A stretch of 64,000 bases of DNA, taken from Candidatus Nomurabacteria bacterium (GTDB lineage Bacteria > Patescibacteriota > Minisyncoccia > Phycocordibacterales > UBA9973). The notes below the pieces were generated by a model that was not told the origin of the DNA, did no database searches, and saw only the letters and a program-made list of their open reading frames with translations. Within the stretch, counting starts at the first letter, position 1. Every line of letters starts with the position of its first letter. The stretch spans positions 80,253 through 144,252 of the forward strand of contig JAHFNH010000001.1 of the NCBI GenBank assembly GCA_023267435.1, given 5' to 3'. A program made the position numbers and the translations under genes. This document shows, in pieces, positions 3,054-11,053 of this stretch.

Positions 3054-3666
3054 AAATTCTTATTCATCAAATTTTGATATAATTAAGCACATGACTTTTA
3101 CAAATTTAGCTATATTAATTTTTGCTTCAGCGTCATACTTAATAGGTTTTTGGGCAATTTTAAAAAAAGGGTATCGTCCAAATCTATTTACGCGTGTTGT
3201 TTTTCTTTGTTTGGCTTTAAATAATCTTGCCAGTGTTATTAAATTAGATAATCAATATTCTACCCTTGTACTCGCATGGGTTACATTTCTTGGTTCATTG
3301 TTAATATTTTTTGGATCAATTTTATTTAAAGGTGAACGCCTTTGGAGTAAAAACGAAACTGTTTCAACAGTTCTTTTAATAATCAGTTTCCTTTTTTGGA
3401 TTTTTACTGATATTCCTTTAATTAATCTCTCAATAGGGTTAATTACACATCTTTTAGGTTCTCTGCCGACAGTTGTTCGTGTGATCAAAAAACCAGAGAG
3501 TGAAAATATTCCATTTTGGCTACTCTTTGCAATCGCAAGTATTATTACATTACTTTCTACACATAGTGGAAATATAAAGGACTATTTGTTTGCAATTTAT
3601 TTCTGTATTTTTGATAGTGCAATGACTATTCTTGCATTTAGAAAATATTTAACTAAAAAAGCTTAG
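3016..3666 (+). CDS. Polytopic membrane protein. The true start may be an internal Met near 3091.
   Basis: About six hydrophobic segments. The 5' end overlaps the upstream ORF. Confidence 0.4.
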   Translation: MVIQVMQDIENFKNSYSSNFDIIKHMTFTNLAILIFASASYLIGFWAILKKGYRPNLFTRVVFLCLALNNLASVIKLDNQYSTLVLAWVTFLGSLLIFFGSILFKGERLWSKNETVSTVLLIISFLFWIFTDIPLINLSIGLITHLLGSLPTVVRVIKKPESENIPFWLLFAIASIITLLSTHSGNIKDYLFAIYFCIFDSAMTILAFRKYLTKKA

Positions 3667-3713
3667 TATTCAAAAAACTAATTCCAACTGTATTTTAAAT
3701 CAGCAGAAGATTT

Positions 3714-4511
3714 TTAAAATTTTAAAACTTCAAAAATATTTTTATCGTAATTCCATTGAACGGTAACATCATCTGATATATCCTTTTCATCGTTACTTAC
3801 CAGATTTACCATAAAAGAATCTTTATCTGTTGTTGAAATTTTATATCCATAAAAATTAGAAGTAACAGGAATTTCTGTGTCTTTGTTAATTTGATTAAAA
3901 AAACCTTTATCGTTTATTTCGTAAAATAAAATGTTTTTTCCGTCAATTTCCTTTACAACATAGATATTAGAAAATATATTTTTACCTATATCCACATAAG
4001 ATACATATATACTTCCAATAAGATCTTTCTCATCAAATAAATTATCTAACCAAACAGCTTCTCTCCCATCTATTATAATTTTAGGGTCTGGTTGCCAAAT
4101 AGACATAATAATCCTATCTTGTGCACATTTTATTAGTTCTGAATTTATTTCTTGTATAAATTTACCACCTTTCTTTATTCTCTTTTCCATTATAAATGGT
4201 CCATAGTTTGCTTGTATATAATTGTGATCCTCGATTACTTCCTGAAGCTTTTTTGCATCTAAATTATTAACAGAAATAGGTATTCCATTTACTTCATTTA
4301 TCTCAACTGCTTCCCACTCGCTTTCAGGAAATAATGATGAATTCACTTGTTCTAATAATCTTAAACATTCCGAAGGTTTGTTTGTGTAACCATCTTCTTT
4401 TACCCTAAGATGTTTATCTTGTAAGATAAAAACAAAAGTAATAATAAAAAGAATTAATACGAAAATCGAAGAAATTATCTTTCCAAGGTCTTTATTTGAA
4501 ATATTTTTCAT
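3714..4511 (-). CDS. N-terminally membrane-anchored hypothetical protein, candidate second immunity/accessory protein for the RHS toxin
   Basis: N-terminal TM (IISSIFVLILFIITFVFIL). Lies downstream and co-directional with the RHS gene. Confidence 0.4.
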   Translation of the reverse strand: MKNISNKDLGKIISSIFVLILFIITFVFILQDKHLRVKEDGYTNKPSECLRLLEQVNSSLFPESEWEAVEINEVNGIPISVNNLDAKKLQEVIEDHNYIQANYGPFIMEKRIKKGGKFIQEINSELIKCAQDRIIMSIWQPDPKIIIDGREAVWLDNLFDEKDLIGSIYVSYVDIGKNIFSNIYVVKEIDGKNILFYEINDKGFFNQINKDTEIPVTSNFYGYKISTTDKDSFMVNLVSNDEKDISDDVTVQWNYDKNIFEVLKF

Positions 4512-4971
4512 ATTCAGATTCTATGACTGTCATATCCACTTTTAGTGGATCTTTTTTTCCATCAAATAAAATCACTCCCCAATCATTCAAATTAATTTTT
4601 TCTCTATCTATTATAATTTTTTCTCCACTATCTTTTGTAAATTCTATATATCTTTTAATAGTAAAAATAGTTTTAATATTTTGTTTATTTAAAAAATTCC
4701 ATGCCAATTTCTGATAATACTGGGAATCAGCGACATATTCTTCGAGCCCTTTTCCATTTTCCTTGTTCATTTTATTAACCTCTGTTTCATTGGGTCCCAA
4801 AAACACTCCAACAATACCGTTTATCTGCAATGTATCATCTAAAGAACTTTGATTTTGAGTTTGATTATTTATAATATTGTTTTTTATATTTGTATTTAAT
4901 AAATAACCGAATAAGATTATTAATAAAATTGGTATAATTATTTTTATTATTTTTTTTGATTCAAGTTTCAT
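4492..4971 (-). CDS. N-terminally membrane-anchored hypothetical protein, candidate immunity protein
   Basis: Start MKLESKKIIKIIIPILLIILFGYLL lies 4 nt after the RHS stop (TAA-TAAT-ATG). Signal/TM anchor followed by a soluble domain. Confidence 0.45.
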   Translation of the reverse strand: MKLESKKIIKIIIPILLIILFGYLLNTNIKNNIINNQTQNQSSLDDTLQINGIVGVFLGPNETEVNKMNKENGKGLEEYVADSQYYQKLAWNFLNKQNIKTIFTIKRYIEFTKDSGEKIIIDREKINLNDWGVILFDGKKDPLKVDMTVIESEYEKYFK

Positions 4972-4975
4972 ATTA

Positions 4976-7900
4976 TTAATTTTGTAAAATATTAAATCTT
5001 CGTAAATATTCATTAGGATTATGTTGATAAAGGCCATTGTCTATATGAACACCATCTACTCTATTAAAATCACCACCCCATCGAAGTCCGGAGTCATTTC
5101 TAACATCTCCAACAAAACCTTGAACTGGGTTTGGTAAAGAATTAAAACCTGAATTTAAACACGAGCTACCACACATAATATCTTTGTTATTATTTTTATA
5201 TTGAATATTTACATCAACAGCAGTACCAACATAATGAGCTGAATTTTCAGTAACTTCACCTTGTTTATGGTAAACATCTCCTGGTATTGGATCTCCTTTA
5301 ATTCTAACTCCAGAACTTTCTATTTGTAATTTTACATCATTTTTACCAGCATATTGATTCAATCTATTGAGATCTTTAGTAAAATCCACAGGTACTTTAT
5401 TTGTTGAATTAAGAAAATTGTTTCCTTTATAATTCACTAATGTAGTGCCAGAATCAGAAGTTGAAGTTTTTTGCCCAGATAAAACAGTTTGAGTCGAACC
5501 CTTACTAAGGAAAGAGTTAATCGAATTCAAAAAAGATTTTATTGCTGAAAGAACTGCTATTTTTCCACTTGGATCTTTCATATTCACCGGATTGTCTCTA
5601 GCATAACTATAACTGTTTTGCTGTTGAGGATCAAGAAGAAGTTCCTGTGGCAATTGCCAAAACATCGAATCTTGACTGATGAATTGCCCAACACCAGCTT
5701 TATAATATCTGGCATTTAGATAATCCAATCCCGTATCGGTATCATAAACCTGCCCGATATATTGCCTCTGAGTATTATATGTTCCTGAAGAAATTCTTTG
5801 ACTGCCGAATGGGAAATAATCCAAAAGCTGAACGCTTGTGCCAGTGGTGTTTGAAACGACATTCGTCGAACCTAAATGATCCGTATGCACATAATACGGA
5901 GTCACCACACCACCGACTGTTTCAACAGTTGCGACAAGCTGATCACCAATATAAATACTTTTAGTTTTTTTAGTTCCGTCCGTATTGTAGAAATTATTTG
6001 GATAATAAGTATTTACACTTCCCTTTTGCATTCTCACGCGATTGCCGGCATTGTCGTATTGATAAACTAGTGTGATTGAATTTTGCACTGGCTGAGCAAT
6101 AGGAGATCTGGAATTCGACAAGTTCACATTCTTTGTCACTTGAACTAACTCATTTTTATAATTCCAAGTATTTATGATAGTTCCGTCAGTTAATAAATTT
6201 CCATTTTTATCATAGGTATTCGTCACGCTATTTATCGAGGTAGCAGCATGAGGGTTCGCATAATTTGTGCCGGTGTTACCCTGATAAAGGTAATTTCCAA
6301 CATCAGATTTATTTAAAATATTTCCAACTGCATTATAAGTGAAATTCTGAGTGTAAGGTGTCTGACCTGCCGGCACACCCGTGGCAAAAGCTACAACTAA
6401 ACGATTCAAGTCATCATAAGCATACACGACATTTTTCGTGGCACTAGTATTTGAAGTATCGATAATTTGAATAATATTATTATCCATATCATACGTGTAA
6501 ACAATATTCTGTAAACTTATTCCATTTCCATTTGTTGTAAACTTATTACTCAAACGATACATTTGTGATGCATTATAAGTATTTGTGGTAGTGGTACCAT
6601 TTGCATAATTAATCACTGCGACCTGATTCATTGGAGAATAATCAATATTAGAAATAACATTCGTGAACGAGCCAGCATTTTCTTTACGCTCGATTTGATT
6701 CAAAAGTCCGGCAGTGTTAAATGTATATCGCACTTGAGCATTATCCGGGTAAGTCATTATAGTTACATTTCCCTGCTCGTCGTATACATAAGAAGTTACA
6801 AAAATATTGCTATTTATCGTCTTGGTTTCGCTGGTAATATTTCCATTTGAGTCATAAGTATATGAAATATTGGCACCGGACGGCATCACAATTCCACAAA
6901 TTTTACTGATACCATTCGTGCAAGAATCATAGAAATAAGAAATTTCTGTGCCTGTCGCACCGGTATAATTTTCTGTCAGCATGCGGTTAAGAACATCAAA
7001 AGTATAATTTGTTGTTTTAGCTTCCGGACTAACAGATTGTGTCATATTCCCCGCATTATCATAAGCATATGTCCATATGCCGAAAGTCGTATCGCCAGGA
7101 GTGTGTAAATCTTCGGCTGTTAATCTGCGTCCAAGTCCATCATAAGTAAAGTTGCGAACATTACTCAATGCATCGGTAATATTTTTTACTTTGCCATTTA
7201 AATTCCAAGAATATGCCGTTGTGTAAGTCGAGCCTGAATTATGTTCATCTACTCGAATTAAATTTCCACGCGCGTCACTGTATGTATCTTTTATTTTTCC
7301 GCGCGGATCAGTCACGGATATTTTCCAGAGATTGTAAACATAACTTGTCGTTCCGACAGAATTTACTGAGTTCAACACACGACCCATTGGATCATATATA
7401 TATATTGTGTAGAGAGAAACATTTGTATTTGGAAAAGTTTTTACTAATCCAGTTCCAGTGTAAGGCAAAGATTGTTTTTGAATCATTCCGAGATTGTTAT
7501 AGACATAATCGCTCACGTTAAAATTGTTTGATGTTTCAGTTTCCTTTCTGTTTTGAATAATTCTTCCCAATCCATCGAAGTATTGATATGTGTCGACAGA
7601 ATTTGAGGCATTCAGATAATCTGTTTTATGAATAGAAACCGCACCGGCAATGTCTGTGTAAACATATGCTGTTTTTGTGACAAGAATTGAAGGTGTGATT
7701 AGGTCAGGAACTTTTTCCACAAGCACTCGGTCGAGTCCGTCATATTCTGTCTTGTAAACAAAACCATTTTGATCAGTTATTTGTTTTGGCTTACCGAGCG
7801 AATAATTATATAAATAATTCACAGAGTGGTTGAGCGCATCAGTGACAGTGGCGGGATATAAATGGTACGAATCATAAGAATAAGAAGTCACATGGCCATT

Positions 7901-10900
7901 CTCATCAGTCAACGAAACGACATTGCCATAAACTCCGTCATAAGATTTTTGCGTGTTTACAAAAGTTATGCCAGTCAGCCATTTTTCTATTTTGGTTTGA
8001 TTGCCCAGGCCGACAGAACCCAGCGCCAGTCTGTCGTAATAATTGCGAGTTTCATTCACTTTCGCCCCATTCTGGTCAAACACTGTATCATCATACGGCA
8101 AGCCAGTGACATTGTTGCCAGTGTTTGCAATATACAAAATATTTTCAATTGATTTATCAGAACCAATATCGGTAAATGAACCATCGGTATTTGCCGTCAC
8201 CTCTCCCCAACTAGTTTTTTGAATTAAATTTCCATAAACGTTGTCGTAAGAATATTCTTCAGCTGTGTCTCGGTGACTACTAGTGCCATCATAAGTCAGC
8301 GCAGTCGTGCTAGTAAGTTTTACAAATTTATTGCCATTGCCTAAATCATAATCATCCCATTTATTTACAACAACCGAATACAAGTTGGTAGAACTGTCAG
8401 TTTTCTCTATCCTGTATGGTTGTCCGATTTTCCATTCGTCATCATTATATTCTCCATGAGAAGAATCTGTGCCGATCCCAGTATGATAATACGTCGCAGT
8501 TGTATTTCCAGCCGGATCTGTTTCAATCACTTTATTAAAACCGGCAAATTTTCTGTCGGTACTGCCGTTGAAAAAATACGATCCTCCTTGATAACTATAT
8601 GTGGTCGTTCCAGTATTTCCGTTTCCATCATTAGTGGTGATTTGATATGTTGTTGGCAAATTAAGCGGTAGACTTGGATTCAAGAGGTTCCCATTTCCAT
8701 CTTTATAGTGATTGCTCATTTTATAAGTAACATTTGTTTGCCCGCCGGTTGGAAGCGTGATAGAGGCAAGCAAGTCTACCGGAAGGGTTGTTTTATTAAA
8801 AAACACATTATTAGTTATATGATTAGTAATACCATCAAAATAATTACCTTGATTTAGAATATCCGCCTGACCATCACCGTTTGCATCAAATAGCAGTCCG
8901 GGATTTAAATCAATATAGTCATTTATTCCCAAGTTAGCACCCGTATTCCAATTAATATCCCAAACCCAGCTATGTCCCTGGTTGATATACACCTTAAGAT
9001 TGGTACAACTTGCGCCACAAGCTCCACCAAGTTGATATGGGTAAAGAATATCAACCAAACCATCGCCATTGATATCTTGAAAAATTTCCCGATTAAAAAC
9101 ATTTCCATTTTGAGTACGAGTTAAAATAATAAAATCTGAAGGAAGAGTGTAACTGGAATCTAAAACCCAACCTGTACCTGTATTTAAATAAACTGACTGA
9201 AACATTCCAGAGGGTTGTGCGGGTGGCACTCCGTAAGTTGATTTGATTATGTCAGCCAAACCATCACCATTCACATCAGCAAACACTTGGTCATTCAAAA
9301 ATTCTGGACTTGCAAAAGTCTGACCTACAGAAGCATTATATGTGCTGAAGTTAGAGCCCGTATCCCATGCAATACTCGTCGTCACAGGTGATGGCCAGAC
9401 AGAAACATCTTTAATATAATCAGAAAAACCATCGCCGTTTAAGTCGGCAACAGCCTGCGGATAACTAAAAGGAGGATTCCAACTTGGGTTCGCAGTCCAG
9501 CCTGAACCATTATTAAGATATGAAGCTTGAGCTCCCCAAGATGAATAAGGGTCGTTACGAACCATATCGTTCAACCCGTCACCATTCACATCTATAACTT
9601 TCGTACTAGCATCTCCCCAACCGTTGTTGTCATGCCGAGCAATCCATATATCGGAAGGAACCGAACGAGAAGTGTCCAATTGCCAGTTGTCAGATGATGG
9701 ATGATATAAATATATTCCCTTTGCAGAATTATAATAATAATCAACATTATTCCATGCTTGAATTAAATCAGTGTAACCATCGCCGTTCACATCGGCTGGG
9801 ATGGTTCCATTATGCGTATCAATAGGGATATATGTTGAACTTTGATTTGAAGGAGTAAAGCCAGAAGTGCCTTGTGTATATGAAAAAGAAGTTGCAGGCA
9901 AAGTCGTCACAGTACCATTAGTGTCTTGACCGGACTCTATTATACTTGAGAGCAAAGAGCGATTGGTATTAGTGCCAGCTATATAATTGAAAACATATTT
10001 CGAAGTCCAAGTGCCATTAACTTTCACATCGATCTCATTGATTAAATAATTGGTGGTACTTGGGAATCCAGCCGCCGCCGACATCATCGCATCAGATCGT
10101 GAAGAACTTCTCAAAAAATCAATTTCAAAAATACCACTACTTGCGGAGTGATTGGAATACGTTATTGTTGCAGGATATATTTGACTGGAATTTTTGTAAT
10201 AAGTGTAAGATATGAAATTTCCATTCGTGTCTTGCACGCTCTCCAGCATCCATTTGTAAACATGAGAAAAATTATTCGGATCATCCTGCCTTGTATTTGT
10301 ATTCGTTCCAAAAGTATAAATCGTTCCTGTCTTATCTGTAACCGTCCACATATTGCTACTAAAACTATATTTCAAAAAATCTCCTTTTTCTATTTTAGAG
10401 GCATAAGTACCGCCAGAAACATTTACCAAGTCCCCTGACAAACTGGAAGAAAAATAATTATCTGTAAATAAAGTGTTGGTGCCTTTTTTATTCACTCTTT
10501 GAATGTAAGGAATATTCATTGACCAGCCATATCCGAAAACACTATCTTGAATTAAATTTTGACTGTTGTACTGAAGAGATAAATTCGGCTGCGTATTATT
10601 GCGACCAGGTGGAACGGCAATAGTATAACTGTAAACCAATGCCCCAGTCGAAGGATCTGTTTGGGCAATACTTTTTTTAACATTAGCATACTCGTTTGTT
10701 TGATTCATTGGGCTGACAGTGGGATTGGGACTTTTATTTTTTTCAACAGTAGGTGTTAGTGTGTCTTCACTGGAAATAGTTCCTCCACTTGGTGCATCTT
10801 TTTTTATTGCAGAAATATTGTCTGTCGCTGTCACTTTTGCATTTATATCTTTCGCTGATAAATCAGGTAGAGCAACATCAGTAGTGTTCGTATCTGAAAC

Positions 10901-11053
10901 ATTACTTGATGGCGCACTTTTAGTACCATCTGTTTTAACAGAAGCATCTTGCGCGAAAGTTATAGGCGTGAGAGAAATAAAAAAACCTAAAACAAGAAAG
11001 AAAACTACAGCTCTAACTAACACTAACGAACATAAAAATTTCTTTATATTCAT
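4976..11053 (-). CDS. Giant secreted SpvB/FG-GAP/RHS-repeat polymorphic toxin (Tc-toxin BC-like) with a C-terminal M15/LAS zinc-peptidase-like toxin domain
   Basis: N-terminal signal peptide and SpvB-like block PNLSLQYNSQ..GYGWSMNIPYIQR. Six DxNGDGxxD FG-GAP/VCBS motifs and many YD/RHS repeats (YTYDGLGRR, YAYDNAGNMT, YQYDNAGNRV). RHS core YYVHTDHLGSTN...YYKAGVGQFISQD and autoproteolysis-type motif NMKDPSGK. The tail has SAHYVGTAVD and LRWGGDF..DGVHID. Confidence 0.85.
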   Translation of the reverse strand: MNIKKFLCSLVLVRAVVFFLVLGFFISLTPITFAQDASVKTDGTKSAPSSNVSDTNTTDVALPDLSAKDINAKVTATDNISAIKKDAPSGGTISSEDTLTPTVEKNKSPNPTVSPMNQTNEYANVKKSIAQTDPSTGALVYSYTIAVPPGRNNTQPNLSLQYNSQNLIQDSVFGYGWSMNIPYIQRVNKKGTNTLFTDNYFSSSLSGDLVNVSGGTYASKIEKGDFLKYSFSSNMWTVTDKTGTIYTFGTNTNTRQDDPNNFSHVYKWMLESVQDTNGNFISYTYYKNSSQIYPATITYSNHSASSGIFEIDFLRSSSRSDAMMSAAAGFPSTTNYLINEIDVKVNGTWTSKYVFNYIAGTNTNRSLLSSIIESGQDTNGTVTTLPATSFSYTQGTSGFTPSNQSSTYIPIDTHNGTIPADVNGDGYTDLIQAWNNVDYYYNSAKGIYLYHPSSDNWQLDTSRSVPSDIWIARHDNNGWGDASTKVIDVNGDGLNDMVRNDPYSSWGAQASYLNNGSGWTANPSWNPPFSYPQAVADLNGDGFSDYIKDVSVWPSPVTTSIAWDTGSNFSTYNASVGQTFASPEFLNDQVFADVNGDGLADIIKSTYGVPPAQPSGMFQSVYLNTGTGWVLDSSYTLPSDFIILTRTQNGNVFNREIFQDINGDGLVDILYPYQLGGACGASCTNLKVYINQGHSWVWDINWNTGANLGINDYIDLNPGLLFDANGDGQADILNQGNYFDGITNHITNNVFFNKTTLPVDLLASITLPTGGQTNVTYKMSNHYKDGNGNLLNPSLPLNLPTTYQITTNDGNGNTGTTTYSYQGGSYFFNGSTDRKFAGFNKVIETDPAGNTTATYYHTGIGTDSSHGEYNDDEWKIGQPYRIEKTDSSTNLYSVVVNKWDDYDLGNGNKFVKLTSTTALTYDGTSSHRDTAEEYSYDNVYGNLIQKTSWGEVTANTDGSFTDIGSDKSIENILYIANTGNNVTGLPYDDTVFDQNGAKVNETRNYYDRLALGSVGLGNQTKIEKWLTGITFVNTQKSYDGVYGNVVSLTDENGHVTSYSYDSYHLYPATVTDALNHSVNYLYNYSLGKPKQITDQNGFVYKTEYDGLDRVLVEKVPDLITPSILVTKTAYVYTDIAGAVSIHKTDYLNASNSVDTYQYFDGLGRIIQNRKETETSNNFNVSDYVYNNLGMIQKQSLPYTGTGLVKTFPNTNVSLYTIYIYDPMGRVLNSVNSVGTTSYVYNLWKISVTDPRGKIKDTYSDARGNLIRVDEHNSGSTYTTAYSWNLNGKVKNITDALSNVRNFTYDGLGRRLTAEDLHTPGDTTFGIWTYAYDNAGNMTQSVSPEAKTTNYTFDVLNRMLTENYTGATGTEISYFYDSCTNGISKICGIVMPSGANISYTYDSNGNITSETKTINSNIFVTSYVYDEQGNVTIMTYPDNAQVRYTFNTAGLLNQIERKENAGSFTNVISNIDYSPMNQVAVINYANGTTTTNTYNASQMYRLSNKFTTNGNGISLQNIVYTYDMDNNIIQIIDTSNTSATKNVVYAYDDLNRLVVAFATGVPAGQTPYTQNFTYNAVGNILNKSDVGNYLYQGNTGTNYANPHAATSINSVTNTYDKNGNLLTDGTIINTWNYKNELVQVTKNVNLSNSRSPIAQPVQNSITLVYQYDNAGNRVRMQKGSVNTYYPNNFYNTDGTKKTKSIYIGDQLVATVETVGGVVTPYYVHTDHLGSTNVVSNTTGTSVQLLDYFPFGSQRISSGTYNTQRQYIGQVYDTDTGLDYLNARYYKAGVGQFISQDSMFWQLPQELLLDPQQQNSYSYARDNPVNMKDPSGKIAVLSAIKSFLNSINSFLSKGSTQTVLSGQKTSTSDSGTTLVNYKGNNFLNSTNKVPVDFTKDLNRLNQYAGKNDVKLQIESSGVRIKGDPIPGDVYHKQGEVTENSAHYVGTAVDVNIQYKNNNKDIMCGSSCLNSGFNSLPNPVQGFVGDVRNDSGLRWGGDFNRVDGVHIDNGLYQHNPNEYLRRFNILQN

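Follow-up and report, generated by a model that had tools for sequence, protein, structure and literature searches.

An RHS-type polymorphic toxin cassette occupies positions 3714..11053, on the minus strand, of a stretch of 64,000 nucleotides (nt) from a Candidatus Nomurabacteria bacterium (contig JAHFNH010000001.1, positions 80,253 to 144,252), referred to here as 'the window'. Three consecutive open reading frames (ORFs) follow one another there, namely a gene for an RHS protein and two small genes designated 'ORF1' and 'ORF2'. On balance, this arrangement is probably that of a Sec-secreted RHS cassette, in which a Peptidase_M15_4 tip is followed by its cognate immunity protein (ORF1) and then by a protein (ORF2) joining a membrane anchor and a module called 'modA' to an orphan module called 'modB'. 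The central observation is comparative, namely that the ORF next to the toxin co-varies strictly with the toxin tip in related loci and that the pair found in the window takes part in this covariation. While much is known about the RHS toxin–immunity cassettes of Proteobacteria and Bacillus, they have hardly been described for Patescibacteria, bacteria that live attached to other cells. The features of the locus are given below, with positions in the window.

4976..11053, minus strand: RHS gene, 2025 amino acids (aa), stop codon at 4976-4978
4979..5563, minus strand: toxin tip, RHS residues 1831-2025, predicted Peptidase_M15_4 / LAS-type zinc peptidase domain
4492..4971, minus strand: ORF1, 159 aa, ATG 4 nt past the RHS stop, probable cognate immunity protein of the M15_4 tip
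4894..4950, minus strand: predicted N-terminal membrane anchor of ORF1, residues ~8-26, AlphaFold2 helix with pLDDT 80-85, the rest of the model being poor
4495..4833, minus strand: conserved ectodomain of ORF1, residues 47-159
4492..4511, minus strand: ORF1/ORF2 overlap of 20 nt, stop region of ORF1 versus start of ORF2, possible translational coupling
3714..4511, minus strand: ORF2, 265 aa, apparent mosaic of anchor, modA and modB
4422..4478, minus strand: predicted N-terminal membrane anchor of ORF2, residues ~12-30, AlphaFold2 helix with pLDDT 84-94
4089..4427, minus strand: modA, ORF2 residues 29-141, apparently degenerate LAS-peptidase-like module with metal ligands replaced
3717..4088, minus strand: modB, ORF2 residues 142-265, single copy of a domain of ~115 aa

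The toxin tip and its covarying partner

The RHS protein, encoded by the sole RHS element within the window, shows the order Sec-type signal peptide, SpvB, FG-GAP, RHS repeats, Rhs-associated core ending ...DPSG and variable tip. Matches were obtained with RHS_repeat (E 5.9e-22, nine stretches), SpvB (E 2.5e-17) and TIGR03696 Rhs_assc_core (E 1.1e-16, 61 bits versus a cutoff of 32.5). The end of the core, ...YSYARDNPVNMKDPSG, precedes a tip of 195 aa that exceeds the cutoff of Pfam Peptidase_M15_4 (32.3-33.2 bits, cutoff 25), and SAHYVGTAVD and DGVH, corresponding to the metal-ligand motifs SxHxxGxAxD and DxxH, are invariant in a four-sequence alignment of such tips. The tip is therefore a good match for the 'wall-acting cargo' that an earlier interpretation based on the letters of the window (the sequence-only reading) had assumed when proposing ORF1 and ORF2 as immunity candidates, and it is predicted to cleave peptidoglycan stem peptides. 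Its identity amounts to 63% with an orphan tip in locus L001, 38% with the tip of L010 and 67% with that of L104; a word-index search with the tip itself gave a fragment match only.

How tips and their neighbours are distributed in the clade was surveyed with relatives of the RHS core end taken from one genome per species, the best 80 loci being retained (L010-L089). These loci belong mostly to Patescibacteria, also known as the Candidate Phyla Radiation (CPR), including Nomurabacteria, Paceibacterota and Saccharibacteria. They contain 68 RHS tips, either as parts of full genes or as orphan C-terminal fragments, the majority without a Pfam family match; the matched ones comprise M15_4 (6 tips), M15_3 (3), alpha/beta-hydrolase or lipase-like domains (~5), Ntox44 (3), CHAP (2) and several nucleases. 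An ORF of at least 60 aa starting no more than 200 nt past the stop codon was found for 64 of the 68 tips, with gaps mostly of 1-15 nt. Since an N-terminal hydrophobic segment is present in 46 of these 64 next ORFs (72%), a small anchored ORF is what normally follows an RHS tip in this clade.

Covariation was analysed for 65 tips with a next ORF, giving 2080 pairs, with tip similarity defined by a phmmer E <= 1e-5. Tips are similar in 67 pairs and next ORFs in 19, and all 19 next-ORF-similar pairs fall inside the 67 tip-similar pairs, for a chance expectation of ~0.6; similar next ORFs with dissimilar tips were encountered in none of the 2080 pairs. Cognate immunity genes are classically recognised by such strict covariation with the tip, and the pair formed by the window and L001 is one of the 19. 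The outcome of this comparison, which the sequence-only reading had recommended, thus agrees with what was expected of an immunity gene, since tail and ORF do co-vary across related genomes.

The L001 pair deserves separate description. In a word-index search of 5.8 billion proteins, the sole homologue of ORF1 found was P0002 (155 aa), with 76% identity over 113 aa of the ectodomain, the anchor and the linker being not conserved. P0002 is present in six activated-sludge contigs (L001-L006), always 2 nt past a 331-aa ORF that consists of an RHS core end and a tip, in other words the orphan RHS tip 63% identical to that of the window. The surroundings of this orphan tip differ from those in the window, with an anchored modB protein upstream and a membrane-fusion protein and ribosomal genes downstream. 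Because the homologous pair recurs in a different neighbourhood, tip and ORF1 appear to behave and move as one unit. ORF1 is accordingly a well-supported candidate and probably the cognate immunity protein of the M15_4 tip, and the proposal first made for it from position and anchoring is strengthened by its place among the pairs in which the next ORF co-varies with the tip.

The geometry of the genes was reproduced as originally described, ORF1 starting 4 nt past the RHS stop and ORF2 overlapping it by 20 nt, and each of the two proteins indeed has one strongly hydrophobic segment, located at the N-terminus (residues ~8-26 in ORF1, mean Kyte-Doolittle value 2.5; residues ~12-30 in ORF2, 3.2). 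These segments are likely uncleaved anchors of N-in/C-out orientation, since a Lys-rich stretch precedes each of them and neither an Ala-x-Ala site nor a lipobox Cys is found. As for the argument that anchoring fits a wall-acting cargo, it is consistent with an M15_4 tip, but anchoring turns out to be unspecific, as next ORFs of this clade are anchored in the proportion given above whatever the tip type. The start of ORF2 is the earliest start codon available past the preceding in-frame stop. For ORF1, an alternative in-frame start at 5037, situated 62 nt inside the RHS gene, leads to the public gene call P0001 (181 aa); this call probably includes 22 codons too many, because the N-terminus of P0002 aligns with MKLESKK at the 4971 ATG. 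Both ORFs exceed what chance ORFs would be, since intact homologues of each exist in other genomes.

A sceptical alternative would see in ORF1 and ORF2 nothing but small membrane proteins of an ordinary kind, which happen to adjoin the RHS gene and have no role in neutralisation. It would account for the lack of a match to any known immunity family, and small anchored ORFs without known function are very common in Patescibacteria. It is very improbable nonetheless, given the 4-nt spacing and the 20-nt overlap, the recurrence of the tip and ORF1 pair in an unrelated neighbourhood, the clade-wide covariation and the fact that relatives of modB abut NlpC/P60 tips (see below).

The next ORFs of L010 and L104 were also considered as homologues of ORF1 and rejected for want of ectodomain similarity. 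At L104:147-942, a lone 185-aa M15_4 tip is found with stop codons where the RHS core would be expected, and the anchored ORF located 1 nt past this tip resembles ORF1 only in the anchor and the juxtamembrane residues (FGYL..NIK).

ORF2 as an apparent fusion of modA and modB

In the word-index search the only homologue of ORF2 was P0004 (292 aa), whose C-terminal 110 residues match residues 29-141 of ORF2 with 62% identity. A profile built from ORF2 and P0004 gave 386 matches at E <= 1e-3 among 1.84 billion representative proteins. These matches split into three families: modA, with few members; modB, with ~20 representatives and often two tandem copies; and a large family related to the N-terminal half of P0004. 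Stand-alone proteins made of an anchor and modA, i.e. P0008 (136 aa) and L011:9608-10063 (151 aa), end in ...SIWQP. In ORF2 the junction lies between WQP and DPKIIIDG..., and the sequence past WQP aligns with modB proteins just past their own anchor. ORF2 is thus best read, from these alignments, as a fusion of two neighbouring anchored genes in which the second anchor was lost.

The modB part (ORF2 145-262) matches the hidden Markov model (HMM) of its family with an E of 4e-40, this model having been built with ORF2 itself included, and is 30-46% identical to 11 members and 22% identical to a divergent copy in L001. The family pattern is G...YV.Y...F...Y...FYGY...SDD.T..WN..K..FE, and its invariant columns are kept in ORF2. 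Three relatives, P0009 (L093), P0013 (L095/L096) and P0014 (L103), consist of an anchor and two modB copies and start 0-6 nt past RHS tips. The tips that precede them pass the Pfam NLPC_P60 cutoff (24-35 bits, cutoff 23), and the RHS core end is visible in L095 and L103 (...DPxxQNxYSYAxNNP...DPSG). As these NlpC/P60 tips are mutually 48-52% identical and their modB partners 27-40% identical, tip and partner would travel together. No NlpC/P60 tip of this type occurs in the window or in L001-L089. For lack of such a tip in the window, the modB part of ORF2 looks like an orphan immunity-type module.

One modB relative gave a match to Tli3, which was rejected as a 25-bit sub-threshold match over 17 residues; a metagenome scan with a four-sequence modB alignment returned three short loci only. 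L001 also has a single-copy modB member, immediately upstream of its orphan tip. There, in L001:1511-7978, the orphan M15_4 tip and the ORF1 homologue follow five same-strand ORFs. The first encodes a PG_binding_1 protein of 641 aa that weakly matches Pyocin_S (E 0.023) and the last the transmembrane-anchored single-copy modB protein, while the middle three have no family match, one of them showing weak CAP_assoc_N/BamE-like similarity. This row may be a second toxin with immunity islet.

The other half of ORF2 is of a different nature. modA shares homology with the final ~70 residues of the RHS tip of L007/L024 and L033, as judged from pairwise BLASTP with the L007 tip (38% identity over 73 aa, E 1e-9), from a modA HMM against the L007/L033 tips (E 1e-8 to 2e-7, in a small database) and from hhalign (96.8% probability, E 2.9e-10, over 68 columns that reach the C-terminus of the tip). 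In these alignments the zinc ligands are lost in modA, AGD being replaced by AVE and QDHLH by QDRII; further upstream the SWH...AGD spacing is shortened, the alignment being by eye in that part. Taken at face value, the substitutions make modA a putative catalytically dead relative of a different RHS toxin tip. A copy of the window's own M15_4 tip was rejected as its source (hhalign 0.2%).

The L007/L033 tips share the motif SWHxxxLAGD ... HQDHxH. The L007 tip has no Pfam match and the L033 tip a match to M15_4 below the cutoff (18 bits, E 0.0044); hhalign between L007/L033 and window-type tips is not significant (11.7%), but the SxH...AxD motifs do align, and both the L007 and the L033 tips are recruited from a database of 68 sequences by an iterative profile started from the window tip. 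Because of this sub-threshold match and non-significant hhalign value, we infer that these tips are LAS-like by motif only, with the recruitment by the iterative profile in support.

Members of the small modA family (P0006, P0007, P0008, P0011 and P0036) occur in a constant position. In all four contexts with enough flanking sequence, modA is in the second gene past RHS, after a first small ORF:

Window: M15_4 tip
L011: M15_4/VanY tip
L007/L024: L007-type tip
L099: Peptidase_M23 tip

Among the sampled tips, modA accompanies 3 of the 11 of M15 type versus 0 of the 57 others (hypergeometric 165/50116 = 0.003), with L099 as a fourth case, this count being uncorrected for shared ancestry. Between genomes modA is 56-63% identical, whereas the RHS shells of the same genomes are 41-48% identical; being more conserved than the shells, modA would be under selection and not in decay.

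This conservation bears on the proposal that ORF2 is a functionless recombination scar of tip replacement, i.e. fragments of an old tip and of an old immunity gene left in frame, so that only ORF1 would matter. Several features have the appearance of such debris: the mosaic is known from one contig only, modA, a homologue of a toxin tip, stops at the very point where that tip stops, modB is single-copy whereas its RHS-linked relatives are two-copy, and RHS genes of the clade are often followed by orphan tips. A scar would hardly be expected, however, to retain an intact frame of 265 codons overlapping ORF1 in a manner consistent with coupling, to contain an anchor and modA that form a complete gene elsewhere (P0008, L011:9608-10063), conserved to the degree just mentioned, to have its junction exactly at domain boundaries and to keep the whole of modB including the invariant G, D, W and F. 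The proposal appears unlikely, and a fusion of two formerly separate genes with a function retained is preferred.

The sequence-only reading had suggested that one of the two small genes might be an orphan immunity gene that remained after its toxin tip had been displaced. For ORF2 this view holds as far as modB is concerned, which is orphan-like and has relatives that follow NlpC/P60-tipped RHS genes. It is too simple for the protein as a whole, since ORF2 fuses two modules that are separate elsewhere and modA would be a dead relative of another RHS tip.

The role of modA is the least certain part of the scheme, an extra immunity or decoy module being most likely and an accessory factor less likely. 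In its explicit form, which is rather unlikely, the decoy idea holds that modA is a membrane-anchored dead LAS-type domain that occupies the stem-peptide or lipid II substrate or pairs with incoming tips. It would then give broad protection against M15/M23 tips whatever the cognate gene, and ORF2 would be a two-headed shield on one anchor, with modA directed against LAS tips and modB against NlpC/P60 tips. An accessory factor of LAS-type RHS toxins, i.e. a surface partner that docks, folds or activates the released tip, would explain why modA is always in the second gene past RHS and never in the first, why it is found with four zinc-peptidase tips (M15_4, M15_4/VanY, L007-type and M23) and why it shares ancestry with the tip domain. 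Its presence with four different zinc-peptidase tips also means that modA lacks the covariation with the tip that is seen for the first ORF. An accessory role is nevertheless decidedly improbable: modA is not required, as 8 of the 11 sampled M15-type tips have no modA nearby, and Rhs accessory proteins, which are of the EagR/DUF1795 type, are cytoplasmic and encoded upstream, whereas modA would be extracytoplasmic and is encoded downstream.

The P0007 and P0004 proteins show modA in other company. P0007 consists of an anchor, a CAP_assoc_N/BamE-like region and modA, and is part of L099:9-5058, a compact array of tip and immunity modules in which an RHS tip of M23 type is followed by a 183-aa anchored ORF, P0007, a 343-aa orphan RHS tip of no known type, a 231-aa anchored ORF and two more small membrane ORFs. 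Residues 1-185 of P0004 belong to a large uncurated family with well over 100 cluster representatives, typically of ~175 aa with an anchor or a signal peptide and with the conserved pattern TDGGGQLTGYF...GLSYG...YYF. In several loci, including L048:9767-10738, L033:10221-11183 and L011:8959-9534, genes of this family come first (only weakly similar, in L011), second, third or fourth past RHS.

Proposed mechanism and relation to known systems

The preferred explanation, that of a Sec-secreted cassette with ORF1 as cognate immunity, can be put as follows. In a polymorphic-toxin cassette of Patescibacteria (CPR) with the order RHS shell, M15_4 tip, ORF1 and ORF2, the RHS protein would be secreted by the Sec route and its tip would cut peptidoglycan stem peptides from outside the membrane. 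An uncleaved N-terminal anchor would keep ORF1 at the cytoplasmic membrane, facing outwards, and the ORF1 ectodomain of ~115 aa would bind and block the tip of the producer or of a sibling before peptidoglycan is cleaved; the linkage of the two genes is observed, the mode of blocking presumed. ORF2 would have arisen from a complete gene for an anchor and modA, joined to a modB gene stripped of its anchor. modB would be an immunity-type domain directed against NlpC/P60-tipped RHS toxins, giving orphan protection from the toxins of neighbouring cells, and modA a dead LAS-type tip derivative kept behind RHS genes with M15 or M23 zinc-peptidase tips.

Several observations weigh against this explanation. 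The homology of ORF1 corresponds to one independent lineage, P0002 being the same protein in six metagenome contigs. The L010 tip (38% identical to that of the window) is followed by an anchored, Cys-rich ORF of 187 aa without similarity to ORF1, and the next ORF of the L104 tip (67% identical) shares only the anchor with ORF1 in the 79 aa visible; the window-type M15_4 tip family would therefore pair with more than one partner family. The exact architecture of ORF2 is known from a single contig of a metagenome-assembled genome, and the association of modA with LAS-type tips (3/11 versus 0/57 and one extra locus) is uncorrected for shared ancestry. Structural support is nil, as AlphaFold2 gave a pLDDT of 45 for ORF2 (single sequence) and of 52 for ORF1 (two-sequence alignment), with the anchors alone confident. 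Lastly, some modB proteins are found away from RHS genes: P0010 (L101) is surrounded by tRNA synthetase and ribosomal genes and has no RHS gene over 6 kb on its upstream and 9 kb on its downstream side, P0012 (L097) comes after a Mur ligase with no RHS within 1.9 kb upstream, and the L092 relative, a signal-peptide version on a contig of higher GC content, has no RHS within ~2 kb on either side. The sequence-only reading had held that homologues without an adjacent RHS gene would speak against immunity, and for modB such homologues do exist. This sets too high a bar for immunity, orphan immunity genes that stand by themselves being well documented (e.g. PMC10539506).

Comparison with known systems places the locus close to the classical toxin–immunity modules, reportedly described by Koskiniemi et al. 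2013 and Zhang et al. 2012, namely Rhs-CT/RhsI of Enterobacteria and the Sec-dependent WapA/WapI of Bacillus subtilis. Common to these modules and to the present locus are an RHS/YD shell, a core ending in a DPxG motif, a variable C-terminal tip, a small co-varying immunity gene directly downstream and AT-rich exchangeable tip cassettes. Like WapA, the toxin has a Sec signal peptide in place of delivery by a type VI secretion system (T6SS). Two differences stand out. The tip would be a peptidoglycan peptidase active outside the membrane, unlike those of Rhs and WapA, which are mostly nucleases, NADases and ADP-ribosyltransferases; and the immunity candidates are predicted membrane-anchored ectoproteins of no described immunity family, whereas those of Rhs and WapA are cytoplasmic. 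The second difference corresponds to the first, anchored candidates being matched to a tip that would act outside the membrane. In Saccharibacteria, a large RHS-type toxin with an adjoining immunity gene was noted in passing (PMC6031116).

In attacking the envelope from outside the cytoplasm, with an exported or anchored immunity protein encoded beside the toxin, the proposed system resembles the wall-degrading effectors of the T6SS and of the type VII secretion system (T7SS) with their immunity proteins, namely Tae/Tai, Tge/Tgi, TelC/TipC and Tae5/Tai5, in which Tae5 is an L,D-carboxypeptidase (bioRxiv 10.1101/2020.02.18.954545). It differs from these by its delivery, which would rely on a Sec-secreted RHS cage in a probably single-membrane bacterium and not on a T6SS or T7SS, and ORF1, modA and modB have no sequence relation to Tai, Tgi or TipC.

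Orphan immunity provides the third point of comparison. Rhs orphan immunity genes are established in Serratia (PMC10539506), and acquired interbacterial defence clusters are known in Bacteroidales (PMC10470768). As in orphan rhs-CT/rhsI systems and orphan immunity, the usual NlpC/P60 partner of modB is absent here, and relatives of modB are also found alone in housekeeping neighbourhoods; moreover, related loci such as L001 and L099 frequently contain orphan RHS tips, each with a next ORF of its own. Unlike known orphan immunity genes, modB is fused in frame with an apparently dead relative of a toxin tip, with which it shares an anchor. No description of ORF1-type proteins, of modA, of modB or of such a fusion was found in searches of the literature on RHS toxins of Patescibacteria/CPR and on immunity by orphan or inactive homologues, and searches of ORF1, ORF2, modA, modB and the N-terminal domain of P0004 against Pfam, NCBIfam, PHROGs and PDB sequences gave sub-threshold chance matches only.

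With its repeats and core, an adjacent same-strand ORF and tip covariation, the locus has the properties of an Rhs module that can be computed and is an ordinary toxin–immunity locus with one unusual gene. What is new is the presence of three uncurated modules in a little-studied phylum, one of them a dead toxin-tip homologue, as judged from its lost ligands, fused to an orphan immunity-type domain. In a broader perspective, Sec-secreted RHS toxins with exchangeable tips are numerous in the clade, their partners having an N-terminal hydrophobic segment in ~70% of cases, and ORF1-type, modA and modB modules now have a testable role. The toxin-derived pseudo-peptidase domain may represent a different route to immunity; otherwise, the locus just adds a routine case to a known system.

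Composition and possible mobility of the cassettes

The window is AT-rich (GC content 0.349), as is usual for Patescibacteria/CPR genomes, and within the cassette the GC content, 0.375 in the RHS shell, drops in steps to 0.304 in the tip, 0.235 in ORF1 and 0.263 in ORF2. The drop over 3700..5563 would fit a horizontally exchanged tip cassette. In a promoter and terminator scan of 3300-5300, matches were no more numerous than in shuffled controls, and no minus-strand terminator-like site was seen between ORF1 and ORF2 or after ORF2.

In related loci, one to three orphan tips stand in series at several places (e.g. L026, L027, L044, L050 and L057). Genes for large serine recombinases flank two RHS loci. 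One, at L011:2-802, lies ~120 nt upstream of the RHS gene; the other, at L093:1280-2128, comes directly after the modB gene and is convergent with it. Their presence hints that some of the cassettes are located on or beside mobile elements.

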